From an uncultured Chloroflexia bacterium (lineage in GTDB: Bacteria; Chloroflexota; Limnocylindria; Limnocylindrales; CSP1-4), in contig CAWIHR010000077.1 of the NCBI GenBank assembly GCA_963835945.1, positions 6,792-70,791 of the forward strand: a DNA stretch of 64,000 nt, read 5' to 3'. The position numbers and the translations under genes are program-made. Positions 1-15,122 of this stretch are shown here, piece after piece. The notes beneath the pieces were generated by a model that was given only the letters and a program-made list of their open reading frames with translations, did no database searches and was not told where the DNA came from. Every line of letters begins with the position of its first letter. Position 1 is the stretch's first letter.

Positions 1-118
1 TACATGCCAGCGACGAACGACGTGATCGTGACAGCATGTCCGATGCCGTCCCGTCGCGTGCAGTCTCACGCTCAGGATGGCGCCTCGGCAGGGCCTCGAG
101 GGGGATGCAGTCCGACCG

Positions 119-352
119 CTACGCTACCGACTCTGCTACCACATGCCCCCTCAGAGCGAGCAGCTCGGGCGGGAACACGACTGAGCCCGGCCGCCCGTGG
201 CAGCGGCCATCGGCGCGCATAACGGTGGCATAAGCGGCGGTGCAGTCCCGGCAGGGCGAGGCGGCGTGGTAGCGACCTGGGCAATGCTCGTTTGCCGCGA
301 TCCAGGCTGCCAGCTCCCTGGCTGTCAGGCAGGGCCACACGCCGTCGACCAT
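119..352 (-). CDS. hypothetical small Cys-rich protein (77 aa)
   Basis: ATG-to-TAG ORF with strongly G/C-biased third codon positions. Contains CPGRYHAASPCRDC. No family recognised. Confidence 0.45.
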   Translation of the reverse strand: MVDGVWPCLTARELAAWIAANEHCPGRYHAASPCRDCTAAYATVMRADGRCHGRPGSVVFPPELLALRGHVVAESVA

Positions 353-373
353 CGGCTCAAGCGTTGCCGCCCC

Positions 374-547
374 CTAGCGCGCCGGACCCGACTTGGAGGG
401 CGCTGCGGGCGGCGCGGGGACCTTCGGCGCAGCCGTCACAGTGCCCGCGTCAGCCGCTGTCCGCCGATGCTCGCGCTCGTGGGCTCGCAGACGCCTAACG
501 GCCTCCCGCTCGGCCTTACGACGGCTCTCTTTCTGTGGGTTGCTCAT
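374..547 (-). CDS. hypothetical basic protein (57 aa, below ORF-track cutoff)
   Basis: Hand translation gives MSNPQKESRRKAEREAVRRLRAHEREHRRTAADAGTVTAAPKVPAPPAAPSKSGPAR. Its ATG overlaps the stop of the upstream gene (ATGA at 544-547). Confidence 0.4.
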   Translation of the reverse strand: MSNPQKESRRKAEREAVRRLRAHEREHRRTAADAGTVTAAPKVPAPPAAPSKSGPAR

Positions 548-1575
548 CCAGCGCGGGCCAGCCCGTCACACAGGACCCGGCCGTCCTTGCGGACGGTCCC
601 CCACTGATCCGGCGGCCACGCCTTCTGTCGCGCCTCGATGATCCAGCGATCCCAGGCCCCGACGAACTTGGCGCGGGCCATCCAGCCCTGCCTCGTCAGC
701 TCCACGCAGACGGCCACGGCGCCCGGCCAGTCGAAGGCGGGCTCGTCCGACGCCGCCATCTCGGCCTGCGCCCGAGCCTCCTGCTCGGGTGTGAGCAGAC
801 GCAGTCCAGCCGGCGAGCTCGTGCTGGCCTGGGTCTTGCTGGGCCGGTTCCTGCTTGCAAAGACCCCCAGGTGCATCGAGATCCCCCACTTGCGACCCGC
901 CCGGCGGGCGGAGGACGTCGCCGGCTGTCCAGAGTCCCGCGCGGGCGCGGGCTGCTCGGACGTGCTGGACGGCCCGGTAAGGCGGGGATCGGACATGCCT
1001 GCCACGAGACCCTGGTCCTGCAGCTCGGATGCGGGGCCGGGCGGCCGGACGTCCGAATGCCACGCGGGCGCAATCCGATCGGGAAGCAGGCGGTTCACGA
1101 GAAGGGTGTCGTACCTGGAAGACACCCGGCCAGCGGGCGAGTCGTAGGCGATGGTCGCCTCGGTGAGCGGGACCATGACCTCTCGCCGATGGAAGAAGCC
1201 GGCGACCGGGTCGGTGCCGGGAAAGGCGTGCAGGTGGCCGCTGACGTCGTAACGCCGGAGCCGGAGCTCCACCGGGTAGGACCGGGTCCGTAGTCGACGC
1301 CGCGGGTTGCCTTGCGGTCCGGTGACCGCCACGGCATACATCTCCTCGCGCAGGACGACCGCCTCGGGGAGCGCCAGCTCATGGCCATCCTCGAGGCTCT
1401 GCGCGGACAGATCGACGAGGGTGAACTGCTCGGCACTATTCAGCAGATCGGTCACGCGATCGGCCGAGAGCGCCACCCGACCGGAGGCCCGGGAGTCATC
1501 CGCGTAGACCGTCAGCTCGACGAGCGGGTCGGGCGAGAGGTACTTGGCTGCGAGGGACTCGATCGCGGTTGCCAT
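544..1575 (-). CDS. hypothetical protein (343 aa) with C-terminal FDWPGAVAVCV domain
   Basis: The ATG at 1575 is preceded by a GGGGAGA RBS, and the longer ORF-track N-terminus is Arg-rich and unlikely. The C-terminal ~70 aa are paralogous to the 84-aa protein at 3400-3654. Confidence 0.6.
   Translation of the reverse strand: MATAIESLAAKYLSPDPLVELTVYADDSRASGRVALSADRVTDLLNSAEQFTLVDLSAQSLEDGHELALPEAVVLREEMYAVAVTGPQGNPRRRLRTRSYPVELRLRRYDVSGHLHAFPGTDPVAGFFHRREVMVPLTEATIAYDSPAGRVSSRYDTLLVNRLLPDRIAPAWHSDVRPPGPASELQDQGLVAGMSDPRLTGPSSTSEQPAPARDSGQPATSSARRAGRKWGISMHLGVFASRNRPSKTQASTSSPAGLRLLTPEQEARAQAEMAASDEPAFDWPGAVAVCVELTRQGWMARAKFVGAWDRWIIEARQKAWPPDQWGTVRKDGRVLCDGLARAG
736..1112. repeat. 377-bp segment, copy 1 (inside CDS 544-1575), identical to 2260-2636
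   Basis: Base-by-base comparison by eye shows no mismatch. Confidence 0.9.
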
Positions 1576-1859
1576 CTCGTCTCCCCTGCTGGCCGAACGG
1601 ATCACGCCGCCTCTCGGAGCCAGGCCCTGCACCCCGCGGCGACAGCATCGACTGTGCGCCCCGACCCCCCGAGCCCGCAATCGTCAGGACTGCGTAGGCC
1701 CCGATGCTCTCGGCTCGCGGCCGGCACAGCTTCCGCCTAACGCGTTCGCAGCGCCTCCGCCAGCTCCCAGAGCATCTCGGCCTCGGTCCCCCCGCGCGAG
1801 TCCACCGCAAGCCGGGTCGCGAACCGGCGCAGGTGCCCCGCGTAGAACGCCGACGCGGC

Positions 1860-2150
1860 TCAGAGCCGTTCCTCGGAGTGCCACTGCGGGCGGGTGGCCT
1901 CCCAGCCCGGCAGGCGCTCAAGGGCTGCGAGCACGGCTTCCCAAGCCTCGCTCCGTTGGCTCATGGTGTGGGAGCCTAGAACGAACGGACTCGTCGCTGC
2001 ACGCCGCGCGGGCCCCACCGCCCTCGCATCACTGGCGGCACGACTACCGCCGAGAGGGGTGCGGGACGAGGGATGGTCCCGCCTCTGGCCGCTCACGCGA
2101 AGGAGGCCCGCCTCGGCGGGCCTCCCGTTGCCGGGTCTGCCCGATCCCAT
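1860..2150 (-). CDS. hypothetical small protein (start uncertain: 2150 or internal ATG at 1964)
   Basis: ORF-track frame. The C-terminal part reads MSQRSEAWEAVLAALERLPGWEATRPQWHSEERL. An in-frame TGA separates it from a downstream TEAE-type tail. Confidence 0.3.
   Translation of the reverse strand: MGSGRPGNGRPAEAGLLRVSGQRRDHPSSRTPLGGSRAASDARAVGPARRAATSPFVLGSHTMSQRSEAWEAVLAALERLPGWEATRPQWHSEERL
2102..2125 (-). terminator. GC-rich hairpin (11-bp arms GGAGGCCCGCC/GGCGGGCCTCC)
   Basis: Perfect inverted repeat followed by a weak TTCGCG tail on the minus strand. It lies between cassette copy A and the next ORF. Confidence 0.35.
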
Positions 2151-2154
2151 CCCC

Positions 2155-2264
2155 GCGGGTCGGTCTCGTCATTTTCCGGCGGCCGGTGTATGGGCCGCGC
2201 GTCAGAGCCCCCCGCGTAATGGGCCGATTATCCCACCCAGCCTCGATGCCACCCGAACTGGCGG
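2155..2264 (-). promoter_or_regulatory. leader/promoter cassette copy A
   Basis: Minus strand carries TGGGATAAT (2235-2227), a conserved hairpin and GACGAGACCGACCCGC. Differs from copy B by one substitution and a 9-nt indel. Confidence 0.6.
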
Positions 2265-2636
2265 GCTCGTCCGACGCCGCCATCTCGGCCTGCGCCCGAG
2301 CCTCCTGCTCGGGTGTGAGCAGACGCAGTCCAGCCGGCGAGCTCGTGCTGGCCTGGGTCTTGCTGGGCCGGTTCCTGCTTGCAAAGACCCCCAGGTGCAT
2401 CGAGATCCCCCACTTGCGACCCGCCCGGCGGGCGGAGGACGTCGCCGGCTGTCCAGAGTCCCGCGCGGGCGCGGGCTGCTCGGACGTGCTGGACGGCCCG
2501 GTAAGGCGGGGATCGGACATGCCTGCCACGAGACCCTGGTCCTGCAGCTCGGATGCGGGGCCGGGCGGCCGGACGTCCGAATGCCACGCGGGCGCAATCC
2601 GATCGGGAAGCAGGCGGTTCACGAGAAGGGTGTCGT
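2260..2636. repeat. 377-bp segment, copy 2, bracketed by cassette copies A and B
   Basis: Identical to 736-1112. Out of its original gene context, so it represents a gene fragment. Confidence 0.9.
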
Positions 2637-2637
2637 C

Positions 2638-2756
2638 GCGGGTCGGTCTCGTCATTGAGGCGCGGTTCCGGCGGCCGGTGTATGGGCCGCGCGTCAGAGC
2701 CCCCCGCGTAATGGGCCGATTATCCCACCCGGCCTCGATGCCACCCGAACTGGCGG
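2638..2756 (-). promoter_or_regulatory. leader/promoter cassette copy B
   Basis: Same blocks as copy A, with TGGGATAAT at 2727-2719. Confidence 0.6.
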
Positions 2757-2957
2757 CGGATTGGCCGCAGCCACCGAACCGACGCCACCGCCCGCTTGCG
2801 TCGCGGACTCCTGGCGGGCGCGCTCGTACGCTCGCCTCGCCTGCGCCGCCCGCCGTTCCGCCTCCTCCACCTCGACGTGGCGGAGGAGCCACAGGTCCCG
2901 TTCCGCGTCGCGCCAGTCCTCGAGCAGGTCAGCGAGGCGCTGCTCGGGTGTCGACAT
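2694..2957 (-). CDS. hypothetical coiled-coil protein (87 aa)
   Basis: ATG preceded by a GGGGAGGG RBS. Sequence begins MSTPEQRLADLLEDWRDAERDLWLLRHVEVEEAERRAAQARRAYERARQE. The 3' end runs into cassette B. Confidence 0.5.
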   Translation of the reverse strand: MSTPEQRLADLLEDWRDAERDLWLLRHVEVEEAERRAAQARRAYERARQESATQAGGGVGSVAAANPPPVRVASRPGGIIGPLRGGL

Positions 2958-3399
2958 CGCCGCCCTCCCCTGTGGCTTCCTCCGCCCACAAGCGTGCGAA
3001 TAGAGGCCAGCGCCTGCAATAGGTAGCTGGGACTATTGGTGTACGGCGGCACCACTTTCGTACTAGGGGGAGGAGGGCGCGAACGGAGCCCGCCCGTCCG
3101 GGGCGCGGAGCGGGGCCAGGACGGAGGCTGGACGGCGGCGCCTACCCTGCGCTTACGGCCGGCCGTTGTAGGTGCGCGCGAGGGCGGGCCGCCGGCGCGG
3201 GTACTGGCCGGTGGACTTCTTTCCTTTCAGGCCGCGGCGCGGTGCCGCCGCTCGTATCGGCCGTCTGCCGCCAGGGTGCCGACGACAGGCGGAACGGACG
3301 GCCGTGGGTGAGCGGTCCGGCCGCCAGAAGGAGCGACGACAGCCTGGACCGCGGGACGAGGGAGAGGTCAGCGCGACGGTCGCCGCGCCTGCGGCACCG

Positions 3400-3654
3400 T
3401 CAGCGGACGTGGCCGTCCATGCGGAGGGTCTTCCACTCATCCAACGGCAACCGCTTGTGCCGCGCCTCCACGGCCCAGCGATCCCCGGGCCCGACCAGCC
3501 GCGTGTGGGCCAGCCAGCCGCGCTTCGTCAGGGTGACGCAGACGGCCACGGCGCCTGGCCAGTCGAAGGTGGCCACGTCTGACGGTTCGGTCTCTACCTG
3601 CGCCCGCGCCTCCGGTTCGGATGGCGGCGATCGCATCCCAGCAGTCGGGCTCAT
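3400..3654 (-). CDS. hypothetical protein (84 aa), stand-alone FDWPGAVAVCV domain
   Basis: ATG at 3654 is preceded by AAGAGGAGA and the spacer TCGGATCGGC. Paralogous to the C-terminus of CDS 544-1575. About 105 nt downstream of the -10-like box of cassette C. Confidence 0.6.
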   Translation of the reverse strand: MSPTAGMRSPPSEPEARAQVETEPSDVATFDWPGAVAVCVTLTKRGWLAHTRLVGPGDRWAVEARHKRLPLDEWKTLRMDGHVR

Positions 3655-3686
3655 GCCGATCCGATCTCCTCTTGGGACGCGTCCCT

Positions 3687-3811
3687 GCGGGTCGGTCTCG
3701 CCAGCGGCTCGGCGCGGTCCGGGCGGCACGTATGTGGGCCGCGTGTCAGAGCCCCCCGTACGCGTCCATTGTCCCACCGGGGTCGATGCGCCCGACGCGC
3801 TCGGCTCGCGG
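3687..3811 (-). promoter_or_regulatory. leader/promoter cassette copy C
   Basis: Carries TGGGACAAT (3776-3768), the conserved hairpin and GGCGAGACCGACCCGC. Closely related to copy D. Confidence 0.6.
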
Positions 3812-3828
3812 CGGCCAAGGACGGGCAC

Positions 3829-4059
3829 TTACCAGCGCCGCAGCGCCTCCACCAGCTCCCGCAGCGCCTCGGCCTCGGTCATGCCCCGCGGCACGCCTGC
3901 AATCCGTCCAGCAAGGTCGGCGGCACAGGCTCCCTGCGCGTGCTCGACGCTCCCCGGAGTTCGAGGGCGACAGGCAGGGAGCCCAGACCGTGAGAGGTCC
4001 GGGCTCCCCTTGATGCCGGGGCGGCAACCGTCGCGAGGCGGCTCTGTCGGACAAGGCAA
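3829..4059 (-). CDS. small ORF ending ..GVPRGMTEAEALRELVEALRRW (start uncertain); weak HicB/UPF0150-like flavour
   Basis: TTG-initiated ORF in the track. Its tail is paralogous to ..SRGGTEAEMLWELAEALRTR at about 1741-1859. The start overlaps a terminator hairpin, so the true start is probably internal. Confidence 0.25.
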   Translation of the reverse strand: MPCPTEPPRDGCRPGIKGSPDLSRSGLPACRPRTPGSVEHAQGACAADLAGRIAGVPRGMTEAEALRELVEALRRW

Positions 4060-4090
4060 GCCGCCCGGGGTGTTCTCCAGGCGGCTTGCC
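4055..4090 (-). terminator. hairpin terminator candidate after the beta-helix gene
   Basis: Perfect 11-bp arms GGCAAGCCGCC/GGCGGCTTGCC with a 14-nt loop. Sits 22 nt after the stop at 4112 and is followed by TTGT on the minus strand. Confidence 0.5.
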
Positions 4091-4111
4091 AGTTGCAGAA
4101 CGAAGCTCAGG

Positions 4112-5677
4112 TTAAGGATGTAGTCGCGGCAGCTTGAGCCTGCCGATGGAAGAGGCTGGACTCACATTGGGGGTGACGCCGGACGTTGCCGCCGACGTGG
4201 GCGCGGGCGCACACCCGATCACCGTGTTGCCGGTGCCCTGATTGAGGGCCGTGTCGTTGGGACTGGCGCATATCAGGGTGTTCTTGGTTGTGTACGGGTC
4301 GAGGATGTACTGGGCAACCGGGGCAACGCCGATGTAGCTCGGGTCGAGCGCGACGCCGCTGACGTTGTTGCCGAAGATCGAGTTGCCCGTGGCGGGCAGC
4401 CACGCCGGGAGGTTGCCCCACAGGCTGATGGCGTCATACGTCCCGGTCGGTGTCGCGGTGATGGTGTTCCCCGAGATCGTGCTGCCCGTGATGTTGTTGG
4501 CGTCGATCCCCTCTTTGAAGTCACCGCTTGCAAGGCCCAGGACGTAGTTGCCCGGGAGCGAGATCGTGTTGCGCGTGATCGTGGCCGTGAACCACTGGGG
4601 GCCGGGGTTGGGCGGAGAAGGCACGTTCGCGGGATACGCGTCCCAGTCGTACAGCAGCATGCCTGCCATGTAGCAGCCGCAGGTGTCTGTGACGAGGATG
4701 GCATTGTCGTGGATGGAGAACTGCGAGAGGCCGTGCTCCAGGCCCGCGAAGTTCGACGGCTCCACCCACACGCCGATATGGTTTTGCCGAATGGTGCTGG
4801 GGTTGTCCGCGGCGACGGTGTTGTCCGAGACGTCGAAGGTCGAGTTCGCCGCGCCGAGGTCGATGCCGAAGTCGACGTTGTCGATCTGGTTCCCGCTGAT
4901 CGTGACCTGGCTCGACGTGATCGCGCCCGACACGACCACGGCGTCATAGATGGTCTGCACGGAGCTGTTGCGGACCGTGAACGACCCGCTCCGGGGGATG
5001 TACGTCGTGCTCGGGCCTTGTAGGGTGTTCGGGAAGTACCCGTCGAAGACGATCCCTTCGAGGACGTTGAAGCCCGTGCCCAGGATGTTCGTCGGCGAGG
5101 TATCGGGACGGCCAGTCACGCTGACCCGGTCGACCGAGGCGTTGCCGGTGCCGTCAGACGTGAAGCCCATGGCGTAGCCCAGGCCGTTCGTCGGCTGCTC
5201 GCCGAAGATCCAGGTCTTCGCCGCGTGGCCGTTCGTCCAGGGGAAGTCGAGGGAGAGATCGGAGACCTCGACATTGCCGTCGACGAAGGTGATGAGAACG
5301 GACCACCGGCAGTTGGTGAAATTGGGCGCGCATTCACCCTGCGTGAAGAAGTCCGACTCGGTGACGAGCAGATCGGGCAGGGCCGCGATGGTCGTGCGGG
5401 ACTCGCCCATGCCTCGGAACGTCCCCTGGAAGTTGTACTCGACGAGCTGGCTGGTGTGGTAGGTCCCGTCCTGTAACTGGACGGTGCAGCGCGGGCTGCC
5501 GTAGTGCGCGCAGTAGTCCAGGCCTGCCTGGATGGCGGCCGTGTCGTTCGAGTTCGGCCCCAATTGGGGCGGCGGCACCAGATACGTCGAACCGAACGGC
5601 AACGCCATGACGGCCGCCGGTGCCGCCAGCGAGGCGGCCAGCATCCCGGCGGTCAGAAACACGAGGATGCGTCTCAC
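4112..5677 (-). CDS. secreted right-handed parallel beta-helix (pectate-lyase-fold) protein, 521 aa
   Basis: GTG at 5677 follows GGGGAGGGG plus 7 nt. N-terminus MRRILVFLTAGMLAASLAAPAAVMALP looks like a signal peptide. PbH1-like repeats are present (ISGNQIDN, ISGNTITA, IFGNNVSG). GC is lower than in neighbouring genes. Confidence 0.8.
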   Translation of the reverse strand: MRRILVFLTAGMLAASLAAPAAVMALPFGSTYLVPPPQLGPNSNDTAAIQAGLDYCAHYGSPRCTVQLQDGTYHTSQLVEYNFQGTFRGMGESRTTIAALPDLLVTESDFFTQGECAPNFTNCRWSVLITFVDGNVEVSDLSLDFPWTNGHAAKTWIFGEQPTNGLGYAMGFTSDGTGNASVDRVSVTGRPDTSPTNILGTGFNVLEGIVFDGYFPNTLQGPSTTYIPRSGSFTVRNSSVQTIYDAVVVSGAITSSQVTISGNQIDNVDFGIDLGAANSTFDVSDNTVAADNPSTIRQNHIGVWVEPSNFAGLEHGLSQFSIHDNAILVTDTCGCYMAGMLLYDWDAYPANVPSPPNPGPQWFTATITRNTISLPGNYVLGLASGDFKEGIDANNITGSTISGNTITATPTGTYDAISLWGNLPAWLPATGNSIFGNNVSGVALDPSYIGVAPVAQYILDPYTTKNTLICASPNDTALNQGTGNTVIGCAPAPTSAATSGVTPNVSPASSIGRLKLPRLHP

Positions 5678-5706
5678 GATCCGACCCCTCCCCACAGATG
5701 TGATCT

Positions 5707-5802
5707 GCGGGTCGGTCTCGCCAGTGGCTCGGCGCGGTCCCGGCGGCACGTATGTGGGCCGCGTGTCATGGCTCCCCGTATGGGCAGATTGTCCCACCGG
5801 GC
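5707..5802 (-). promoter_or_regulatory. leader/promoter cassette copy D
   Basis: Carries TGGGACAAT (5796-5788), the conserved hairpin (5743-5762) and GGCGAGACCGACCCGC. Directly upstream of the beta-helix gene. Confidence 0.6.
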
Positions 5803-5975
5803 GGAAGCGACTCAGGGGCGCCGTCGGCCTGCCGGGGAGCCGAACACGGGGAGCCCGGACTCCCCGGGCAGGCACCCCGAACATGCCGCCCCCATGCAGA
5901 CGGTGTCAGTGATGAAGGTTACTCAGCAGCCATCTACTGCGGCGCGCATCTCCGGGACCTCACGCGGCCGGCAGG

Positions 5976-6569
5976 TTAGGCGGCAGAGCGGTGGCGCCCG
6001 GCCAGGGGCTCGAGCTTGCCGTCAGGGGTCAGCGTGCCGACCACGGGCGGCGCAGGCGACGGGATGCGGTCTCCGTGGGCGTCATAGACCGGGCCGTGCA
6101 GACTGCCGGCGGCGTAGACGGGCGCGTACCCGGCGATCACGTCCCGCATGGCCCCGCGAAGGTGCGGCAGAGGCGGGGAGTCGTCGGCCCGAGTTGCAGT
6201 CGGCGTCGGTGCCTCGATAAGGGCCGTTAGTGAGTCCGTTTCACGCACGAACTCCGGCGACTTGTCCTCGCAGTGGTCTCCCAGTGCCTGTTCGCCGTAA
6301 GTGGGGTCTATCAGCGTCATGTCGCGCTCCCTGCGGCGGCGTTCGCGCTGCGCCCCCGACCGGCGGGCGCGCTCTTCCGCGCGACGGTCGGCCTCCCGGG
6401 CGCGGGCGATGGTCGCGGCGGCCTCGGTGCCAGCCAAGTGGCCGCATCCCGGCCGGTGCCCCTCGCCCCGGCATCGCTGGCGGGTCTCGTCTCGCCCAAG
6501 ATGCGCGCAACCCTCGCGGTGGCGATCGCCTCGGCATCTTCGGCGCCCGGGTTCGATGATCGGGGTCAC
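5976..6569 (-). CDS. hypothetical protein with tandem Cys/His knuckle repeat (197 aa)
   Basis: ATGA overlap with the upstream gene. Two repeats: CRGDRHREGCAHL and CRGEGHRPGCGHL. Confidence 0.55.
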   Translation of the reverse strand: MTPIIEPGRRRCRGDRHREGCAHLGRDETRQRCRGEGHRPGCGHLAGTEAAATIARAREADRRAEERARRSGAQRERRRRERDMTLIDPTYGEQALGDHCEDKSPEFVRETDSLTALIEAPTPTATRADDSPPLPHLRGAMRDVIAGYAPVYAAGSLHGPVYDAHGDRIPSPAPPVVGTLTPDGKLEPLAGRHRSAA

Positions 6570-6886
6570 GCTCGGCCGCCTTGCGCGAGGCTGTGCGCGG
6601 AGCAGGCGAACCCCCGCAGGCCGTAGGCGCGGACCACGGCGGAGCAGTAGTGGCAGCAGTACCTTTGATCCTTCCGGCCGGGGACGAAGGACGCGGTGCA
6701 GCCGGCGCAGGCACGCGGGCCGTAGTGGACGCGACGGGCAGCGTTGAGGGCGTCACGGTTGCGGGCCCGCCATGCGCGGTTAGCCCCGATCGGGTCAGGC
6801 GGCGAGCAGGTCAGGCAGTACTGGCGGGGCTTGCCGGTCTGCCTCGGACGCTCAAACGCGACGCCACAGGCCGGACAGGTCGTCAT
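6566..6886 (-). CDS. zinc-ribbon protein (106 aa)
   Basis: Begins MTTCPACG and continues with ..YCLTC..CAGC..YCCHYC Cys clusters. The ORF-track N-terminal extension crosses an AT-richer intergenic region and was rejected. Confidence 0.55.
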   Translation of the reverse strand: MTTCPACGVAFERPRQTGKPRQYCLTCSPPDPIGANRAWRARNRDALNAARRVHYGPRACAGCTASFVPGRKDQRYCCHYCSAVVRAYGLRGFACSAHSLAQGGRA

Positions 6887-7001
6887 CGCGGGCCACCGTT
6901 GCTCGCGCAGGGAACGAAAGACTCGCTCGCCGAAAACTGCGTCACGGTCTGGCGCGTTTTCGATTTGCCGCTTTTGGTTTGAACTCGGACGGCCCGCAAC
7001 C

Positions 7002-7900: not shown

Positions 7901-7902
7901 CG

Positions 7903-8151: not shown

Positions 8152-8168
8152 GTTCGGGTCCTTCTCTC

Positions 8169-8828
8169 TCAGTAGCCGTCGGGCGGGAAAATGAACAGCC
8201 TCGGGATGGCGAGGCAGGGGATGCGCGCCACGTCCCAGCGCAGATCGGCCGCCATCGGGTCGAGCCGCCCTACCGTCTGCGCCGCCTGCGGGTTCCTGTC
8301 GAAGTCGGCGGCGCCCTTGGCGAGCTCGTGGAACTCCTGGCCGAGCAGGGCTCGGCGGTTGAGCACCTCGACCAGCGGGGCGAGCAGGCGGTCGATTTCT
8401 GCGTCGGACGCCTCGGCCTCGGCCATGAGCTCGGCGGCTTTCGTCCGCATCTCGGCCGCGGTGCGCGCCATCACGGCGGCCCCGTGGGACCGTTGCGCGG
8501 CCGCCTGCTCGGCGGTCAGGACGGCCTCCTGTTCGCGCAGTTCGGCCAGGGCGTCGGATACTGCGCGGTGCCGCTCGAGCAGGGCCGCGGTGCTCGAGGG
8601 CTTCGCCTCGCCCCGCACGACGGCCAGACGGTTTCGGGTGAGGGCCTCGACGGCATCGGCGAGGGCGGCCTCCGCGGCGGCGATCTCGGCCCGGAGCAGC
8701 TCGGCCCGCTGGCGCCAGGTGTCGAGCTCGGCCCACCGCGCCTCCGCCTCGGCCGTGGCAGCGGCCAGCGCCTCGGCGAGTGGATCGGGCACGCTGGCAG
8801 CGGGCGGGACCTCAGACACTAGGACCAT
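8169..8828 (-). CDS. Ala/Glu-rich coiled-coil protein (219 aa)
   Basis: Internal ATG at 8828 is preceded by GAAGAGGGGAA. Long heptad-like AEAxxAL stretches. Confidence 0.6.
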   Translation of the reverse strand: MVLVSEVPPAASVPDPLAEALAAATAEAEARWAELDTWRQRAELLRAEIAAAEAALADAVEALTRNRLAVVRGEAKPSSTAALLERHRAVSDALAELREQEAVLTAEQAAAQRSHGAAVMARTAAEMRTKAAELMAEAEASDAEIDRLLAPLVEVLNRRALLGQEFHELAKGAADFDRNPQAAQTVGRLDPMAADLRWDVARIPCLAIPRLFIFPPDGY

Positions 8829-9590
8829 GGCGGGTTCCCCTCTTCGGATGGCGATAGGGCGTGGAGTGGCGGCGGCGCGAGTGATGGGCCGGCCACAGGC
8901 TGGGCGGCCGGGTGCCAGCCCGACAGCTCGGGCACCAGGCCAACATGCGGGGACCGAGGGGCTGGTGGCAGCGGTCGCACAGGCCGAGCCCGAAGGGCTC
9001 GAGCGGCGGGACGGGAACGGCAGGCCCTCGGTCATCTCGCGGTTTCTGCCATCCCCGGCGGGATGCACGGTCACGACGTAAACCTGTTGCTGCACATCCC
9101 GCGAGAGCGGCGGGAGCGCGCGCGGACTCCGGCCGTCGGCGCTGGCGTCCGGCTGTGGGCCGACGCCAGCTACCGGGAAACTGGGGCGGAACGGCGTCGC
9201 GGGACCGGCCTGATCGTCGTTTATCCCGTGCCGTTCACCATGCCAGGCCTCCGCATAGAGGTCGCGCGGTTGGTCGTTCATTGCTTGCTCCAATCCGGTT
9301 GGTATGGCGGCTCGTTGGTATGGCGGCTCGGCGGTGATCCCGCGCGCCGCCAGGTGGGCGACGATGGTCCGCGCCATCTCGTCAAACTTTGCCCGGCTGA
9401 GATACGGCCGGGCGAGCTCGAGGAACGTCAGGGCGGCGATCAGCCGCACGGTCTCGCGAGCACCGGCGGATCGATCGCCGGCGTCGAGGCCTGCCCCGCC
9501 GGGTCGGTCGTCCCCCGGCCGGATCGATCCCTCGAGCTCCACCGGCAGGAAAGGAAGCTGTCGGTAGGTCCCGGGACAAGCCTTATCCAT
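8812..9590 (-). CDS. hypothetical protein with C-terminal zinc ribbon, reading frame shifts near 9030-9060
   Basis: The 5' part is in the frame of ORF 8169-9590 (MDKACPGTYRQLPF...). The 3' part in another frame, ..PLEPFGLGLCDRCHQPLGPRMLAWCPSCRAG.., has much higher GC3 and ends at a TGA at 8812. Confidence 0.45.
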
Positions 9591-10017
9591 CGAGAGCCTC
9601 GGCGTAGCGTGCGGCGAAGGCGGGCGAGACGCGCAGCGCGCCCTCTGCGGCCGAGAGACGCTGGCGGCACAGGCCGAGCCGCGCGGCGAGCTGCGCCTGT
9701 GTCAGGCCCGCTCGCCGGCGGGCGGCGCGCAGGTCCGGGCCGGTGGTATCCATCGCGGATAGCGTCGCGCTCGGCTCGGCGTCCGGACAGGGGTCGAAAG
9801 ACGGCCCCCCTGCTATAGCGGCGATGGCGGCGACGGCCTGCACGAGCGCGTCCACGGAAAGTCGCTCGCGTGCCGCGGCGGCGTGACGCGCGACGGTTCG
9901 CTGGCGGATGCCGAGCTCATGGGCGACGGCCTTGGTGCCTCCGAGTCGGCCATAGGTGATCAGCACCTCTCGTTGCCTCGGCGTCAGGCTGTCGAGCGGC
10001 CCCGGGACGCCGGTCAC
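9583..10017 (-). CDS. dual HTH DNA-binding regulator (LuxR/sigma-r4-like plus XRE-like)
   Basis: GTGA overlap with the upstream gene. LTPRQREVLITYGRLGGTKAVAHELGIRQRTVARH is followed by LRAARRRAGLTQAQLAARLGLCRQRLSAAE. Confidence 0.65.
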   Translation of the reverse strand: MTGVPGPLDSLTPRQREVLITYGRLGGTKAVAHELGIRQRTVARHAAAARERLSVDALVQAVAAIAAIAGGPSFDPCPDAEPSATLSAMDTTGPDLRAARRRAGLTQAQLAARLGLCRQRLSAAEGALRVSPAFAARYAEALDG

Positions 10018-10259
10018 GGCAGGAGCCTCGGCGGGGCGACGGCGGACAGGAACGCGGACCGCTCGGCATCGCTCGGCTCGACTAGCAGGGCGATCGCGTC
10101 GGCCGCATGTCCGCCAGGCGAGACGGCAGGCAGGCATTGCGGGTTAGCGCCGGCCCGGCAGGCGTAGCGGGGCGGGCGGTCCGGACGGACGCGCGACAGG
10201 ATGACGAGCAGGTCCCGCGGCTCCGGGTTGCCGCACGAGTAGCAGGCCGGCACCTTCAT
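10014..10259 (-). CDS. hypothetical Cys-containing protein (81 aa)
   Basis: ATGA overlap with the upstream ORF. Very high GC3. Begins MKVPACYSCGNPEPRD. Confidence 0.5.
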   Translation of the reverse strand: MKVPACYSCGNPEPRDLLVILSRVRPDRPPRYACRAGANPQCLPAVSPGGHAADAIALLVEPSDAERSAFLSAVAPPRLLP

Positions 10260-10441
10260 GCCACCGGCCTCCGGTCGGTCGGCTTGGGCAAACGGGAGCG
10301 GTGGACGTAGACCGGCACTCCGGTCGCGAGGTCGCGATGTGTCAGGAGCGGGCGGCACCAGCACCACGGCGAGGCTGAGTGGTCACGCCCCGGCAGTTCG
10401 ATAGGCGCAGCATGGATCGGGAGCGGTGGGCGGGTACTCAT
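10256..10441 (-). CDS. hypothetical protein (61 aa)
   Basis: First ORF after the repeat-rich intergenic region. Translationally coupled to the next gene. Confidence 0.45.
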   Translation of the reverse strand: MSTRPPLPIHAAPIELPGRDHSASPWCWCRPLLTHRDLATGVPVYVHRSRLPKPTDRRPVA

Positions 10442-10453
10442 CTCTGAGGCCCT

Positions 10454-10570
10454 GCATTGCGTTTCGGGTGCGCAATGCCGGCGGCTCTCTCTTCGTAGAA
10501 GAGAGCCGTCATTGCGTCTCCCGCAATGCGCTCATTGCGCTGGCGTTGCGTTCCATTGCGCTCGTTGCGC
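10454..10570. repeat. array of CATTGCG/CGCAATG 7-8-mers (iteron- or operator-like)
   Basis: IR GCATTGCG-N9-CGCAATGC (10454-10478). IR CGGCTCTCT..AGAGAGCCG (10482-10508). IR CATTGCG-N5-CGCAATG (10510-10528). Tandem CATTGCGCT(G)GCGTTGCG appears twice (10533-10570). Confidence 0.7.
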
Positions 10571-10604
10571 TGGGCGGTCGGCAGGACCGTGCGCGGTGCG
10601 CGTC

Positions 10605-11549
10605 TTACCGGTCACTGACGGCCACCCATCGATGGTCAGGCATCTTGAGGAAGCGCCCCGACCTGCTGCCCTGGCTGAGGTAGGCCCGCACCACGTTCGC
10701 GGCCATGCCGGTGCCATCGACGATGTCCGAGGCGTCGCTGCGCCCATGCTCCGTGAAGAACCGCTCGACGCGGTCGATGCCGCGCATGGCGGCCGCGACA
10801 AGCTCGGGCGTCGCGATCTCTTCGCGCGCGACCCGGATCATGCGCGGCGGCTCGTGCCCATCGAACTCGAGGCGGATGCCGACTGGCGCGACCGGCGCCC
10901 CGTTTGTCTTGGTACAGATCAGGGCCAGATGCAGGAAGCCGTCGGCGCCAGCTGACTCACGCCGCAGGGCGAACACACGCCGCGAGTCGTTCATCTTGTA
11001 GATCGAGCCGTATGGTTTCGCGGCCGGACGCTCCGACTCGACGTCGGCACCGGCCACGTGGTCCAGCAGGACGGCCGAGCAGTGGAGCTCGCGCAGTGCC
11101 ATGAACATCCGCTTAGTCGTCTCTTCGGCGGATCCGCCCTCGGTCGTCTGCCCCAGCGCGCCGCCGACCGCGTCGACGATCACCATCACGACGTCGCGCT
11201 CTTGCACGAAACTCGCGATCTCTTCGACCTGGTCGGCGAGCGGCCGCATCCCGCAGTGTCGGTACGCGATGTCGGGTGCCTCGATCCCAGCGCCGGCGGC
11301 GATCGCCGCAATGAGCGCGTTCCACGTGTCGAGGTCGTTCTCCCAGTCGAGCACGAGCACGCCGCCCTGTCGCGGCTCGAGTCCTGGGACGATTGCCACT
11401 CCCGCCGCGACGCTCACCGCGAACACGGCGCCGAGGATTGTCTTGCCGGTGCCGCCCGGGCCGTGGATGGTGATCGGTAAGACGTCGGGCACAACGCCGG
11501 CGATGCGGTAGACGAGTTCACGCGCGGCGACCGGCCGGCGGCCGACCAT
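10605..11549 (-). CDS. RepA-like RecA-fold P-loop ATPase (AAA_25-type)
   Basis: Walker A motif ITIHGPGGTGKT and Walker B-like VMVIVDAVG. This architecture is typical of replication/primase-helicase ATPases of actinobacterial integrative elements. Confidence 0.8.
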   Translation of the reverse strand: MVGRRPVAARELVYRIAGVVPDVLPITIHGPGGTGKTILGAVFAVSVAAGVAIVPGLEPRQGGVLVLDWENDLDTWNALIAAIAAGAGIEAPDIAYRHCGMRPLADQVEEIASFVQERDVVMVIVDAVGGALGQTTEGGSAEETTKRMFMALRELHCSAVLLDHVAGADVESERPAAKPYGSIYKMNDSRRVFALRRESAGADGFLHLALICTKTNGAPVAPVGIRLEFDGHEPPRMIRVAREEIATPELVAAAMRGIDRVERFFTEHGRSDASDIVDGTGMAANVVRAYLSQGSRSGRFLKMPDHRWVAVSDR

Positions 11550-12112
11550 CTCGAACGGCTCTGCCTGCTCGCGGGCCCGGATGACCGCGAGGCTGGCCCA
11601 CTCGAGCAGATCGCGCCAGGGCGACTGTCCCGCCCGTCTTCTCTGCGAGCAGCTTCGCTCGGGCCGCCCGTGCGCTCGAGCTCGTCAGGTCCAGCGTGCC
11701 GTGGTCGACGTGCTGATCCCGGTGGCGTACGACGAGGTAGGCTGCGGCACTCGCCGCGGCTCCAGCGCAGCCGGCTGATCTCGAGCTCGCTCGGGTCCGC
11801 CATGACGAGGAAGCCGAGCCCCTGTCGCACGAGCAGCGGCTCCCCGGTGCGGAGTGAGCGGTCTAGTGCAGCGGCTTCTTCGGGCGGTAAGTCGGGCGGG
11901 CGCGGGATGCTCTCGACGTCCGCCAGGACGGGCGGCGGCTCGGCCATGACTTGGTCCCGGTACGCGATCGCCTGCGCCCGGTGCCGGAGCTGCACCTGCT
12001 CGGCCGTGAACTCCTCGAGGGCCAGCCCGTCGTCCTCGTCAGCCTCGGGCGGCGGTATCGGGGCGACGATCCACGCTCCGTCGTCGGCGGGCATCGGCTC
12101 GGCCCCGTTCAT
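11550..12112 (-). pseudogene. probable N-terminal region of the RepA-like protein, split over three frames
   Basis: Frame 1 reads MNGAEPMPADD...SELEISRLRWS. Frame 2 reads AAASAAAYLVVRHRDQHVDHGTLDLTSSSARAARAKLLAEKTGG. Frame 3 reads QSPWRDLLEWASLAVIRAREQAEPFEMVGRR and runs into the ATPase ORF. Confidence 0.4.
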
Positions 12113-12342
12113 TGCGGCCCCCACCACGGGCGGAACCCGGCGGCCAGCATCCGTCGAGTGAACGCGGAGCCACGGACTCGGCGAAACGGGATCACGTTTG
12201 CCGGCGCCGGGGCAGGCTTCGGCGGTTGTGGAGTAGCGGGCGGGCGCGAGCCCCTGCTAGCATCTCGGCGGGAGTCTGAGGTACGCACAGAGACGGACTC
12301 CTCCGGGCCGGGTGCAGTCGAGGCGCCCGGTCCGTCTATTCA

Positions 12343-12360
12343 GGGCGGGCGTTCCCGCCC
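12343..12360 (-). terminator. short GC hairpin GGGCGGG-CGTT-CCCGCCC after the excisionase-like gene
   Basis: Perfect 7-bp stem 15 nt downstream of the stop at 12375. No U-tract. Confidence 0.3.
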
Positions 12361-12374
12361 CCGAGTGAGGGAGT

Positions 12375-12695
12375 TCAGGCGGCCGCATGAGGCGCCGCCT
12401 TCGACGGGTGCCGGCGGCCGGCCGGAGCGGGCGCAGTGGCGAGCCTCTCAACCTCCGAAGATGGGATCAGTCGGCGCCCGCCTACCGTCACGCTCTGCAC
12501 GGTGCCGGCGGCCATGAGGCTGTAGAGCGTCGAGCGGGACATACCGCCCAGCCGCTCCGCGGCGCGCTTCACGTCTAGCAGCTCGACGGGTGCGGGGCGT
12601 GCCGCGTCGGCCGATCGCTCGGCGGCGACGGCCAGCACGGCCGCGACGAGCTCGCGGGTAGCGACCTCGAGCCGGGCCTCGGCGGGCGTGGTCAC
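12375..12695 (-). CDS. xis: excisionase-family (MerR-like) HTH DNA-binding protein
   Basis: GTG at 12695 overlaps the RHH stop (GTGA). LLDVKRAAERLGGMSRSTLYSLMAAGTVQSVTVGGRRLIPSSEVERL matches the excisionase-type HTH pattern. Confidence 0.7.
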   Translation of the reverse strand: MTTPAEARLEVATRELVAAVLAVAAERSADAARPAPVELLDVKRAAERLGGMSRSTLYSLMAAGTVQSVTVGGRRLIPSSEVERLATAPAPAGRRHPSKAAPHAAA

Positions 12696-12886
12696 GGCCG
12701 CGGCTCCGGCGAGGGCGTAGCCGGAGGAACGGCGGACGATCGCCCGCGCGCGCGCTCGGCTCTCTCGAGCCCGTCCAGGATCAGCCTGGCGGCCTGGGCC
12801 CGCGGGTCGCGGAGCTCGCACCGCGCGAGGGCGATCAGTCGATCGACAGCGCTGGCCGGGAGCTCGACGCGTACCCAACGGTTCAC
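12692..12886 (-). CDS. ribbon-helix-helix (CopG-like) protein
   Basis: VRVELPASAVDRLIALARCELRDPRAQAARLILDGLERAE fits a beta-strand plus two helices. Coupled to xis. Confidence 0.6.
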   Translation of the reverse strand: MNRWVRVELPASAVDRLIALARCELRDPRAQAARLILDGLERAERARGRSSAVPPATPSPEPRP

Positions 12887-12965
12887 GAGTCGAGTGTGCG
12901 GCGGGTCAGCCTGACAGAGACTGACTCCGCCCGGACAAGTAGCCTGACAAATGACGCGAAGGCGA

Positions 12966-13499
12966 TCAGTCGAAGCGGGGCGGCCAGCCCGGGATGCGGA
13001 GGTCGTCCTGTGCGCGCTTCAGCGTCCGCCCGCTGTAACTCGGCCAGCCCATCTCTTCGTTGAGGATGCCTGCCACTACGTCCCGACTGTAGCGCGGGCC
13101 GTGGCTCTTCTTTGCACGCGAGCATCCCTCTTGGAGCATCGCTCGGGTCAGGCTCCGGGCAACCTGTGGCGCGTCAGGGTCCGGGGATAGCTCGGCGGAT
13201 GCGCTGAGGGTTCGCTCGGTGAGGCTCCCCCGGACGTACTCCGCGATCGCGTGGCGATCCCGAAGGCTCTCCGTCGGCGCCAGGCTGATGCCGTAGCTCT
13301 TGAGGTCCATGCGGACGCGCCCGGCCATCCTGGCGATTTCGTCGACGATCTCCTCTTCGCTCCACCCCTCGGCGACGCCTTGCGCGATCATCCCCGCCCG
13401 TGCCCCCTCGAGCATCCGGCCAGCGGCCCGCGTAAGGCCGTCTAGGTCGCGAGCCTCTAGCGGAGCGGCCCCCTTCGTGTTGCCATCCTCGCCGCTCAC
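12966..13499 (-). CDS. hypothetical protein (177 aa), translationally coupled to integrase
   Basis: Its start overlaps the integrase stop by 4 nt. No family recognised. Confidence 0.6.
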   Translation of the reverse strand: MSGEDGNTKGAAPLEARDLDGLTRAAGRMLEGARAGMIAQGVAEGWSEEEIVDEIARMAGRVRMDLKSYGISLAPTESLRDRHAIAEYVRGSLTERTLSASAELSPDPDAPQVARSLTRAMLQEGCSRAKKSHGPRYSRDVVAGILNEEMGWPSYSGRTLKRAQDDLRIPGWPPRFD

Positions 13500-14653
13500 G
13501 ACGCACCCCCGAGCGCCCGCTCGATCGCATTCGCGGCCTCGCGCTTCTGTGCCCGGTCCATGTGCGCGTACACGTCGGCGGTTATCGCGATCGTGCTATG
13601 TCCGAGAGCATCGGAGACGAGCTTGAGAGGGACTCCCTGCGCGAGCATGAGAGACGCGACGCCGTGCCGAAGATCGTGGAACCGGACGCGAGGCAGGCCG
13701 AGCCGTGCCAGCGTCGCGTGGAACTCCCGGTCTACCGTCCAAGAACGCAACGAGCGGCCCAGTGCGTCAGTGAACACGAGCCCGTCGCGATCCTGCCACA
13801 GCTCCCCGGCGGCGAGCCGTTGCGCGGCCTGGCGGGCTCGTTGACGCCGGAGCGCCCGGACGGTGGTAGGTCCGAGCTCGAGGGTGCGCCGGCTGCGCGG
13901 TGTCTTCGTCTCGGCCAGCCCCCAACCGCCCCCGCGGATGCGGGCCATGCTGTGCCGGACGGTGAGCGTTGGTGCCGGCCCCTCGAGCTCCACGTCGGCC
14001 CATGTCAGGCCGAGTACCTCCCCCTGCCGGAGCCCGGTGGTCGCGGCCACGGCGAAGAGCGGGGCGAGGTCCCCGTCGTCCTCGAGCAGGGCCCGCGTCT
14101 CCTCAGCGGTCAGGACGTGCATCTCGCGGCGCGCGACGGCCGGAGGACGCGACAATGCCGCGACATTGCGAACAATGAGCTCGTCTCGCTGGGCGTCGCC
14201 GAGAGCGCGGCGCAGCGTCCCGCGGATGCCACGCGCCGTCACGCCGGAGCGCCCGCGCGACAGGACCGTGGTCATTAGGCGATCCACGTCCGAGGGTCGC
14301 AGGTCCGCCAGGGGAATATGGCCGAGCTCCGGGATCAACCAGTCCCGGCAGTGCTGCGCCCGGGCCCGCCAGCTCGCGGAGCGCACCCGGCCCTCCTCGG
14401 CTGCCAGCCATCCGGCCAGGTAGTCCGCGACCGTCGTCCGCGCGGTCGGGCGTCCCGTGTCCTCAAGCCGGCGCCGCAGATCGCGCAGTCGCTCCCGCAC
14501 GATCGCTTGCGACTGGCCGGAGACGACGTGCCGGGTATGCCGCCCGTCGGCGTCAACCGCGACGATGGCACCCCGCCATCGGCCGTCGGCAGTGTGGTAG
14601 ATGCTCCCCTCGCCTCTTGGGCGGCGGCGTCGGGGGGTGGTAGTCTCGTTCAT
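13496..14653 (-). CDS. int: tyrosine-type site-specific integrase
   Basis: 385 aa. Has an N-terminal SAM-like domain. Catalytic pattern is R (GLRQGEVLGL), HDLRH, and Y in ADVYAHM. Confidence 0.95.
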   Translation of the reverse strand: MNETTTPRRRRPRGEGSIYHTADGRWRGAIVAVDADGRHTRHVVSGQSQAIVRERLRDLRRRLEDTGRPTARTTVADYLAGWLAAEEGRVRSASWRARAQHCRDWLIPELGHIPLADLRPSDVDRLMTTVLSRGRSGVTARGIRGTLRRALGDAQRDELIVRNVAALSRPPAVARREMHVLTAEETRALLEDDGDLAPLFAVAATTGLRQGEVLGLTWADVELEGPAPTLTVRHSMARIRGGGWGLAETKTPRSRRTLELGPTTVRALRRQRARQAAQRLAAGELWQDRDGLVFTDALGRSLRSWTVDREFHATLARLGLPRVRFHDLRHGVASLMLAQGVPLKLVSDALGHSTIAITADVYAHMDRAQKREAANAIERALGGAS

Positions 14654-14747
14654 GGTGCCGACCTCCGCAACAGGTCTGTGCGCCGGGACCCTCGGACCGT
14701 TCGCGCGGCCGGGGGTCCGTCCTTGTCCGGCTATGCTACCGGATGCA

Positions 14748-15122
14748 CTACCATTCGGGCGTCAGGGTGCCATCTTGAGCACGAACACGGCCCGAAGCAA
14801 CAAGCGATATGATCGTCGCGCCGGCCTGTGAGACCGCCACGTTCATGGCGCCGATGAAGACTGGGCCGCCGACCAGGGCGAGAACCGCGAGCCTTGCGAT
14901 CTGTTGGTTCGTTGGCTTCGGCGGTCGTGGACCCAGACCGCCGAGCGCCACAACCGCGGCCAGCCCCGCCGTCGCCAGCAACCCGCGCCACGTCGTCGCG
15001 GACAGCGGAGCGAAGGACCGCAGCACGAACGCGGTCGCCACGTAGGACGTGCCGAACAGGACCGCCGCGGTCGCCGACGCGGCCATGCCGAGCCACTTCG
15101 TCGCGGCGACTCCCGCCCCCAA
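14748..15122 (-). pseudogene. EamA/DMT-family transporter gene truncated at the island junction
   Basis: Only about 3.5 TM helices are present (..VLFGTSYVATAFVLRSF.., ..LALVGGPVFIGAMNVAVSQAGATIISLVAS). They are followed by an unrelated lower-GC tail GRVRAQDGTLTPEW and a stop. Confidence 0.6.

Follow-up and report, generated by a model that had tools for sequence, protein, structure and literature searches.

An integrated island of probable prophage origin, without recognisable virion genes, in an uncultured Limnocylindria bacterium

Background

In the staphylococcal phage-inducible chromosomal islands (PICIs), the Staphylococcus aureus pathogenicity islands or SaPIs, the replication origin lies immediately 3' of rep, and in actinomycete integrative and conjugative elements (AICEs) the genes are ordered rep-xis-int. 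Here we compare with these and other mobile elements an island in the genome of an uncultured soil bacterium from the Limnocylindria, a class of Chloroflexota that live in soil and freshwater. The stretch of DNA that was analysed, called the window below, is 64,000 nucleotides long and corresponds to positions 6792-70791 of contig C77 (CAWIHR010000077.1, about 71 kb) in a metagenome-assembled genome (MAG) of 86 contigs and 4.05 Mb (GenBank GCA_963835945.1, hereafter G000). It contains an element that interrupts an EamA/DMT transporter gene and that we read, at a probability of roughly 0.55, as a decaying, virion-less island derived from a prophage of temperate-phage ancestry.

Satellites and phages share few core genes, and an element that combines an integrase, an AlpA-like regulator and a primase or replicase may be a working satellite, a defective satellite or an element of another kind (de Sousa et al. 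2023, PMC10085698). The Chloroflexota are outside the phyla named for most satellites in the same study. No paper on mobile elements, phages or prophages of Limnocylindria was found in the literature searched.

Results and discussion

The island and its attachment site

Genes were called from frame plots of GC content at third codon positions (GC3) and a codon log-odds model trained on G000; the GC content of the region is about 71%, and raw lists of open reading frames (ORFs) are noisy there. The minus strand is the coding strand across the whole region. At the point where the island splits the EamA/DMT gene, a 7-bp core (TGATCGT) is present in duplicate. It measures 14,787 bp including one core copy, extends core to core from 23 to 14816, and lies wholly within the window. 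An earlier reading of the letters and ORF translations, made before any database search and called here the sequence-only reading, had given the extent as 1-14795 and placed the left end outside the window. The ends are instead the cores at 23-29 and 14810-14816, and the missing EamA half starts at 29 and runs leftwards; a 204-aa EamA fragment (Pfam EamA, 2.9e-19) lies directly left of the window (L001:6182-6796). The same reading had pointed leftwards for the other att repeat and the missing half of the transporter gene; the repeat is the core at 23-29, and the missing half runs left from there.

Its claim that this is an integrated mobile island is borne out by an empty site in a genome of the same genus, G012, where flanks about 98% identical to those in C77 are joined. 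Among 40 relatives searched with the C-terminal EamA fragment, G012 encodes a 98% identical EamA protein in a 408-aa open frame; this uninterrupted orthologue reads ...VSQAGATITSFVAGMYAV... The empty site (attB) in G012 is ...GACGAACGACG[TGATCGT]CGCGCCGG... The left junction follows the attB sequence through the core at 23-29 and continues as island DNA; at the right junction, island sequence ...AGCAACAAGCGATA[TGATCGT] ends at 14810-14816 and chromosomal DNA as in attB lies beyond. Over 20 kb, G012 and C77 align in three colinear blocks of 97.6-98.3% identity, which skip C77 2745-6015, the site of two insertion sequence (IS) copies, and window positions 30-14809, the island. Because the coiled-coil gene of the island (see below) was not found in any of 13 same-genus genomes, and Rep was not found in the seven of the genus searched for it, the insertion is recent and lineage-specific. 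The EamA gene is truly inactivated by the island.

Two transposase genes lie left of the EamA fragment, followed by saccharopine dehydrogenase and thymidine kinase genes. The sequence-only reading had found the layout less like a complete prophage than like other elements, and a complete prophage is indeed excluded: the DNA left of the island holds no capsid, terminase or tail genes but the EamA half, the two IS copies and then housekeeping genes. The two IS copies (C77 2745-6002) are in tandem with a 1,629-bp period, encode a DDE_Tnp_1_4 transposase and are 99.9% identical; they have no counterpart in colinear G012 and no further copy in the assembly.

Pairs of the form GCTACC-N6-(G/A)CTACC occur about 65-110 bp inward of both island ends and in like orientation (Table 1). 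We interpret these paired repeats as putative arm-type integrase sites. Beside the right core, the island arm is an imperfect imitation of attB; in our own alignment the two agree at about 17 of 24 positions. Two further candidate sites were rejected. A second occupied EamA site in G005 (L006, G005:C13 about 1111-1500) proved to be an orthologous gene that appears frameshifted near the attB-equivalent position; its short frame belongs to a contiguous gene with no insertion. A primary attB in a tRNA gene was also discarded, the reconstructed attP having no other match in G000.

Relationship to a temperate-phage lineage

The minus-strand order proposed by the sequence-only reading (int, a coupled ORF, a ribbon-helix-helix (RHH) protein, xis, a RepA-like ATPase, an iteron-like array, a helix-turn-helix (HTH) regulator, small ORFs and cargo) was confirmed. 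The best homologue of the C-terminal part of the 473-aa frame in the small-ORF region, identified with HMMER, led to a metagenomic temperate-phage contig of 9.8 kb and 68% GC (ENA ERZ27256974 k141_694800, here L035), the nearest phage. L035 is ordered int, a coupled 172-aa ORF, an HTH_17 xis, a replication initiator, several small ORFs and a homologue of the coiled-coil part of that frame; beyond the latter come three small ORFs, an HNH endonuclease and the large terminase (TerL). Its similarity to the island extends to the integrase (58%), xis (61%) and three early ORFs (39-42%), and to the non-coding leader between att and int, with its GGTAGC pair. In both, a coupled ORF follows int; the L035 ORF occupies the position of the 177-aa ORF of the island, and no similarity between the two is detectable. 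Because int, xis, three early ORFs and the int leader are homologous to L035, the right two thirds of the island belong to a temperate-phage lineage, of which they are the lysogeny and early part, with a different replicon swapped in.

The two elements differ in their replicons, an AAA_25 helicase in the island versus a phrog_3926-type initiator in L035, and in the HNH and TerL genes, which the island lacks. They also differ in site. At L035 1-280, a tRNA 3' end (…GTTCAAATCTCGGCTTCGGCACCA), not EamA, stands beside the integrase. Since the island's 58%-identical integrase uses EamA and L035 a tRNA end, a single lineage of integrases has switched its attachment site.

In L035, and in two genomes of the same family as the host (G042 and G046), a coiled-coil homologue lies upstream of TerL at a distance of about 0.3-1.4 kb. 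In the latter two they are weaker and precede the large terminase by about 0.3 and 1.1 kb (terminase start estimated). A scan of IMG/VR with the coiled-coil homologue returned no relatives. Homologues of Rep also occur in phage-type surroundings. The locus L015 (JGI 3300031671 Ga0307372_10007228, positions 270-13847) has about 12 kb between two integrase genes and carries a Rep homologue, a sigma-like HTH protein, a Neck1 connector, a large terminase and a major head protein; no portal or tail was recognised in it, and its 464-aa and 127-aa proteins gave no significant match to the island apart from a weak HTH alignment. L015 is a candidate capsid-forming satellite or compact prophage. In L013 a large terminase follows the Rep homologue, and L017 is a prophage-like early region with a Rep homologue.

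Search for virion, packaging and transfer genes

Family scans covered those island ORFs, from about 55 aa upwards, that GC3 frame plots led us to regard as coding. Pfam, PHROGs, NCBIfam and PADLOC detected no capsid, terminase, portal, FtsK/Tra or relaxase gene among these, a negative that the sequence-only reading had already reported and that holds for the complete element. Tail and lysis genes were not detected within the att-bounded island. The packaging and capsid-hijacking genes TerS (small terminase), Cpm, Ppi and Rpp had no PHROG or Pfam match in the island, and no match was found there to the capsid, portal and connector genes of capsid-forming PICIs (cfPICIs) or to psu, delta, sid, epsilon and alpha of P4. 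Relaxase, coupling protein and type IV secretion system genes had no Pfam or NCBIfam match, and no oriT was recognisable. PADLOC and NCBIfam gave just sub-threshold matches to HTH and similar families, and no defence or transfer family.

A six-frame Walker-A scan of the island yielded one genuine motif, in Rep. A six-frame genome search for FtsK_SpoIIIE (PF01580) found the chromosomal ftsK on C31 alone, and no island ORF matched. ORFs judged coding and longer than 200 aa are just the integrase, Rep, a beta-helix protein, a 378-aa cargo ORF that matches no virion family, and the composite 473-aa frame. A conventional capsid, portal, large terminase or DNA translocase has no space in the island. 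Searches by tblastn with all core proteins joined into a 2,309-aa concatenate gave nothing at 1e-3 in 50,697 phage records or 72,556 plasmid records. An HK97-type capsid (PF05065) had no match in the assembly, which is 86% complete, and consequently no helper phage was identified.

Elsewhere in G000 there are isolated pairs, at C29:85494-87361, C1:42295-44174 and C16:62430-64351 (also on C44 and C83), in which an ORF of 117-137 aa overlaps one of about 490-520 aa that matches the large terminase family phrog_2 (E down to 3.5e-39). No recognisable head or tail genes follow them.

Replication module

The intact distal ORF of rep encodes 314 aa with an AAA_25 domain (Pfam, 1.1e-13). Only 12 homologues were found among 5.8e9 proteins, which makes this RepA-like replicon family a rare one. 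The homologues are 352-508 aa long, mostly 425-508 aa, and their extra N-terminal residues, about 140, align upstream of the 314-aa ORF in three successive frames. Because the three collinear high-scoring segment pairs (HSPs) obtained with P0003 fall in three different frames (Table 1), rep carries two frameshifts. The sequence-only reading had seen a structured spacer between xis and the RepA-like gene; this is mostly a broken coding sequence, the N-terminal 140 or so codons of rep. In the flanking chromosome, 11.4 kb compared with G012 contain no coding indels, and all flank indels are confined to window positions 15097-15322, upstream of the inferred EamA start codon. The assembly is not generally indel-prone.

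An AlphaFold model of Rep, built from the 12-sequence alignment (pLDDT 77, pTM 0.71), has a RecA-fold core and a C-terminal helix-helix-helix-strand-strand unit, which we read as a putative winged helix. Foldseek with this model matched DnaB, KaiC, RecA and RSF1010 RepA at E of about 1e-9, and the RSF1010 RepA helicase (1nlf) aligned with the Rep core at a TM score of 0.61 on the target. No primase domain was found. An iteron array begins 30 bp downstream of the rep stop codon, and 6 of the 13 exact CATTGCG/CGCAATG heptamers in the 64 kb fall within 106 bp. From its position and repeat structure we infer that the array is a candidate origin, bound by the winged helix of Rep. The island has its own replicon type, a RepA/DnaB-like helicase with an iteron array. 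A Rep-bearing locus in G059 was also considered; it is organised differently and is uninformative on the island.

Nature of the island

The reading that we prefer may be set out as a sequence of events. Int would have recombined attP with the site in EamA, and together with Xis it is probably still able to cut the island out again. The resulting circle would have been amplified by Rep, loaded at the iterons, a function that is now doubtful, and transfer to another cell is impossible without a helper. The late region would have been lost from this prophage derivative, which would be decaying in place while carrying cargo controlled by cyclic di-GMP (c-di-GMP). Like defective prophages, the island combines integrase insertion with a duplicated core, phage-homologous genes, absent late genes, a rep pseudogene and host-type cargo; five of its genes are homologous and syntenic to L035, and essential phage modules are gone. 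Unlike them, it keeps both att sites and the arm repeats intact, its late region is cleanly gone, and c-di-GMP riboswitch modules stand in its place. The signs of decay are the two rep frameshifts and duplications of fragments in the cargo.

Several points weigh against this reading. The island retains, all intact, its integrase, its excisionase, its two cores and its two arm-site pairs, and these together with an insertion that is recent relative to a 98%-identical genome are the look of an active element. The layout (int, xis or AlpA-like gene, rep, putative origin, small ORFs and accessory genes) and the size of 14.8 kb are those of PICI-type satellites. The rep frameshifts are those of the assembled sequence; moreover, a 314-aa product from the ATG at 11549 would retain both the ATPase and the winged helix, and among the homologues some measure no more than 352-369 aa. 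The small ORFs are orphans and may have hijacking functions. Finally, the late region may have been lost after integration, or the element may have been small on arrival.

These points lead to the first alternative, that the island is a functional PICI-like phage satellite of the kind that SatelliteFinder calls 'Type C' (integrase, AlpA-like regulator and replicase only), induced and packaged by a helper related to L035. It would excise and replicate from the iteron origin, and some of the orphan ORFs would redirect packaging or assembly. We consider this a possible but less likely reading. Elements of this composition may be functional satellites according to de Sousa et al. 2023 (PMC10085698), and the island resembles the 'Type C' PICIs in its length of about 15 kb, in its order of int, AlpA/xis-like HTH gene, RepA-like gene, putative origin, small ORFs and far-end accessory genes, and in its want of virion genes. 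The integrase stands at one end, and the 14,787 bp, against the 10-15 kb or so of PICIs, are flanked by att repeats in the form of the 7-bp cores. Int, xis and the att sites are intact, gene order and size are as in PICI-type elements, and the putative origin lies directly 3' of rep as in SaPIs. Rep homologues occur in compact elements such as L015 (about 12 kb, with TerL, a major head protein and Neck1); in each of three phage contexts the coiled-coil family stands just before TerL, where a part in packaging would be in keeping with its position; and the 82-aa ORF resembles a tail-fibre N-terminus.

However, neither TerS nor any capsid-morphogenesis, capsid-redirecting or interference gene was recognised in the island, its rep has two frameshifts, and no helper is known, the 86%-complete assembly having no match to the PF05065 capsid. 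Nor did a family of similar islands come to light: 5.8e9 proteins include no relative of the 161-aa or the 177-aa ORF, and the tblastn searches of phages and plasmids were empty. Five genes are homologous to those of a phage, unlike the few core genes that satellites and phages share in PMC10085698. Because of these five genes, the frameshifted rep and the failure to find a conserved virion-less family, we favour a prophage remnant over a satellite. A bolder version, in which the island is the first working satellite of the Chloroflexota (Limnocylindria), with replication from a RepA-iteron origin, an L035-like helper and orphan hijackers that possibly include the coiled-coil protein, and spreads riboswitch-controlled genes, that of the secreted beta-helix protein among them, from cell to cell, strikes us as speculative and rather improbable. 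The sequence-only reading had likened the layout to PICI-like satellites or to small actinobacterial elements; the first likeness survives as a possibility only, and the second does not.

It is very unlikely that the island is a non-phage integrative mobilisable or plasmid-like element, that is, an integrated RepA-iteron replicon transferred by a resident conjugative element. The Rep core does resemble RSF1010 RepA, iterons are typical of plasmid replicons, and the genome holds other islands with an integrase and a primase, on C26/C6 and on C31. Against this, the island lacks a relaxase, a coupling protein and an FtsK-like translocase, no oriT is recognisable in it, the tblastn search of its core against 72,556 plasmids was empty, and every informative homology points to phage-type contexts.

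AICEs, other integrative and conjugative or integrative mobilisable elements, cfPICIs, P4-like elements and complete prophages each fail a tested defining feature. With AICEs of the pSAM2/SLP1 type the island shares its small size, integrative habit, int, xis and replication gene, and high-GC DNA. It differs from them in having no FtsK/SpoIIIE-type Tra, no Spd, Pra, Kor or NUDIX genes, a Rep that is an AAA_25 helicase and not of the RepSA, RepAM or prim-pol type, and a gene order that is not rep-xis-int. For the PPDK gene in the flank, the nearest relatives are in Candidatus Limnocylindrales MAGs (77% and 74%) and in other Chloroflexota, and an actinobacterial host appears unlikely. One family in the order has genomes of about 1.1 Mb, which fits the small genomes of Limnocylindraceae. 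The defining genes of cfPICIs and P4-like elements were not matched in the island, whereas L015, with the same Rep family, has TerL, a major head protein and Neck1.

That the island is a complete but unrecognisably novel small virus, with structural proteins among its orphan ORFs, is hardly credible: many ORFs do lack homologues, and no paper on Limnocylindria prophages was found, but a single P-loop protein is encoded, the orphans (the 473-aa frame aside) are 82-197 aa long and largely helical or of low complexity, one third of the element is host-paralogous riboswitch-controlled cargo, and the related L035 has a conventional HNH-TerL module.

Whichever of these holds, the island is a precisely delimited integrative element with an empty site, a crossover core, putative arm sites and a link to a temperate-phage lineage. 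Should it prove to be an active satellite, a further phylum would be added to those known to have satellites; as no more than a decaying prophage, it would be ordinary in kind but well resolved.

Table 1. Features of the island and its borders, with alignments to rep homologue P0003 and to phage contig L035 (window positions)
Feature	Position	Strand	Basis or remark
EamA/DMT C-terminal half, first codons, including left core TGATCGT (23-29)	1-29	-	Runs on to C77:6182, left of the window
Cys-rich cargo ORF, 77 aa	119-352	-	Paralogues of 47-52% identity on C33, C50 and C26; no family match
Left-arm putative arm-type pair, GCTACC-N6-GCTACC	123-140	+	Right arm has a pair with equal 12-nt spacing and orientation
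Cargo ORF, about 345-378 aa, ending in FDWPGAVAVCV-type domain	544-1680	-	Multi-paralogue family in the genome
Rearranged cargo segment	2149-2713	-	100% identical copy of 736-1035 at 2260-2559, between riboswitch copies
Weak riboswitch remnant	2149-2221	-	RF03169, 27.5 bits
c-di-GMP-II-GAG riboswitch	2632-2713	-	RF03169, 42.9 bits
c-di-GMP-II-GAG riboswitch (3681-3765), then small FDWPG-domain ORF	3400-3765	-	RF03169, 56.2 bits, E 4.8e-9
Secreted right-handed beta-helix protein, 521 aa	4112-5677	-	Pfam NosD 4e-6, Beta_helix 4.5e-5; behind riboswitch 5701-5785
c-di-GMP-II-GAG riboswitch	5701-5785	-	RF03169, 58.3 bits, E 1.4e-9
Orphan ORF, 197 aa	5976-6569	-	GC3 frame plot
Orphan ORF, double CxxC, zinc-ribbon-like	6566-7000	-	Two sub-threshold PHROG matches of unknown function, 1.5e-3 and 7.5e-3
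Orphan ORF, 161 aa	7002-7487	-	GC3 frame plot
Orphan ORF, 144 aa	7466-7900	-	GC3 frame plot
ORF, 82 aa, like N-terminal domain of phage tail-fibre proteins	7903-8151	-	phrog_8469 'tail fiber protein', 1.6e-5
Alignment of L035 87-aa ORF with the 82-aa ORF	7912-8151		39% identity over full length, 4e-14
Composite open frame, 473 aa	8169-9590	-	N-terminal ~100 aa and C-terminal 207-aa coiled-coil part (8169-8792) correspond to two separate early genes in L035
Alignment of L035 248-aa ORF	8175-8636		41% identity, 3e-21
Alignment of L035 153-aa ORF	9315-9440		42% identity, 4e-8
Two-HTH regulator (LuxR/GerE and Xre/HTH_3 types)	9583-10137	-	Pfam GerE 9.6e-7, HTH_3 4.6e-7; PHROG regulator families
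Cys-rich ORF, 117 aa	10014-10367	-	GC3 frame plot; no family match
Putative replication origin	10455-10575		Array of CGCAATG/CGCAACG iterons, both orientations, around a palindrome of lower GC
rep, RepA/DnaB-like helicase gene, two frameshifts (~11740, ~11625)	10605-12127	-	Intact distal ATG frame 10605-11549
P0003 HSP 3, residues 114-142	11618-11532		Own frame
P0003 HSP 2, residues 84-111	11712-11629		Own frame
P0003 HSP 1, residues 31-64	11845-11750		Own frame
xis, excisionase/AlpA-like HTH_17 protein	12375-12695	-	Pfam HTH_17 3.6e-7; phrog_66 2.4e-6
Alignment of L035 xis	12438-12683		61% identity, 3e-19
Small RHH-like protein, 64 aa	12692-12886	-	Weak phrog_9751 match, 7.7e-4
Orphan ORF, 177 aa, translationally coupled to int	12966-13499	-	4-bp overlap with int stop codon
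Tyrosine integrase (int), full length, 385 aa	13496-14653	-	Pfam Phage_integrase 3.5e-20; phrog_1 5.5e-63
Alignment of L035 integrase	13511-14614		58% identity, 6e-118
Right-arm putative arm-type pair, GCTACC-N6-ACTACC	14735-14752	+	Kept in L035 along with int leader
EamA N-terminal half	14748-15080	-	Final 14 codons and stop island-encoded, unrelated to EamA (translation)
Right core copy, TGATCGT	14810-14816		Three-way alignment of empty site, left junction and right junction

Integration genes and small ORFs

The integrase adjoins the right end of the island and has at least eight paralogues in G000 by tblastn. The 177-aa ORF coupled to it has no homologue except itself among 5.8e9 proteins. 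The next ORF, called RHH by the sequence-only reading, stands as a gene, with 63%-identical paralogues beside integrase genes on C26 and C6; its fold we infer from the sequence pattern only. The phrog_66 family matched by xis is described as 'excisionase and transcriptional regulator', and the broad fold class is that of the AlpA/Stl/MerR-type regulators of PICIs. G000 contains sibling islands at C26:8319-13140 with C6:1-4407 and at C31:7787-11685. One sibling has a frameshifted integrase, an RHH paralogue, a primase of the archaeo-eukaryotic (AEP) type and a DUF3631 gene; another has an integrase and a truncated D5_N/DUF5906 primase-helicase.

A run of packed small ORFs extends over 5976-10367. 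For the 473-aa frame, HMMER against 1.84e9 representative sequences found homologues of residues 259-472 only (P0018, E 4.6e-20). The four ORFs of 5976-7900 had no match in Pfam, NCBIfam, PADLOC or the PDB, and PDB searches with the sequences or profiles of five ORFs gave nothing meaningful. The 161-aa ORF has no homologue except itself among 5.8e9 proteins, and its single-sequence AlphaFold2 model was poor (pLDDT 62, pTM 0.26). It and the 144-aa ORF beside it (7002-7900) have TVAK in common, and three copies of L-x(4-5)-P-W-[RA]-[SG]-G lie near or at their C-termini, which suggests that the two may be a distant duplication.

Cargo and riboswitches

The left 5.9 kb of the island (30-5900) are cargo, in place of the HNH-TerL region of L035. 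Riboswitches of the c-di-GMP-II-GAG class (Rfam RF03169, gathering score 40 bits) recur through this segment; identification of the cassette of about 90 nt as a ydaO-type riboswitch was rejected, Rfam assigning it to RF03169. There are 39 RF03169 matches in G000, 34 of them above the gathering score, and the island cargo proteins have many paralogues behind genomic RF03169 matches, up to 90% identical. The set is a very large regulon that includes these paralogues. The cargo is host-type DNA, probably exchanged by recombination among dispersed modules. Members of the c-di-GMP-II-GAG regulon thus ride on a mobile element, one route by which surface or secreted functions controlled by a second messenger may pass between strains.

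The segment with the beta-helix gene and its riboswitch (4112-5785) has a lower GC content, about 65%, and a paralogue on C11 likewise stands behind a riboswitch. The small FDWPG-domain ORF has a 90% identical copy on C33, behind another RF03169 match. The larger ORF at 544-1680 has tblastn matches on more than 15 contigs of G000, at up to 77% identity, and a match to Pfam DUF6812 that is sub-threshold only. A 300-nt fragment of this gene is duplicated within the island at 100% identity, a very recent duplication or gene conversion.

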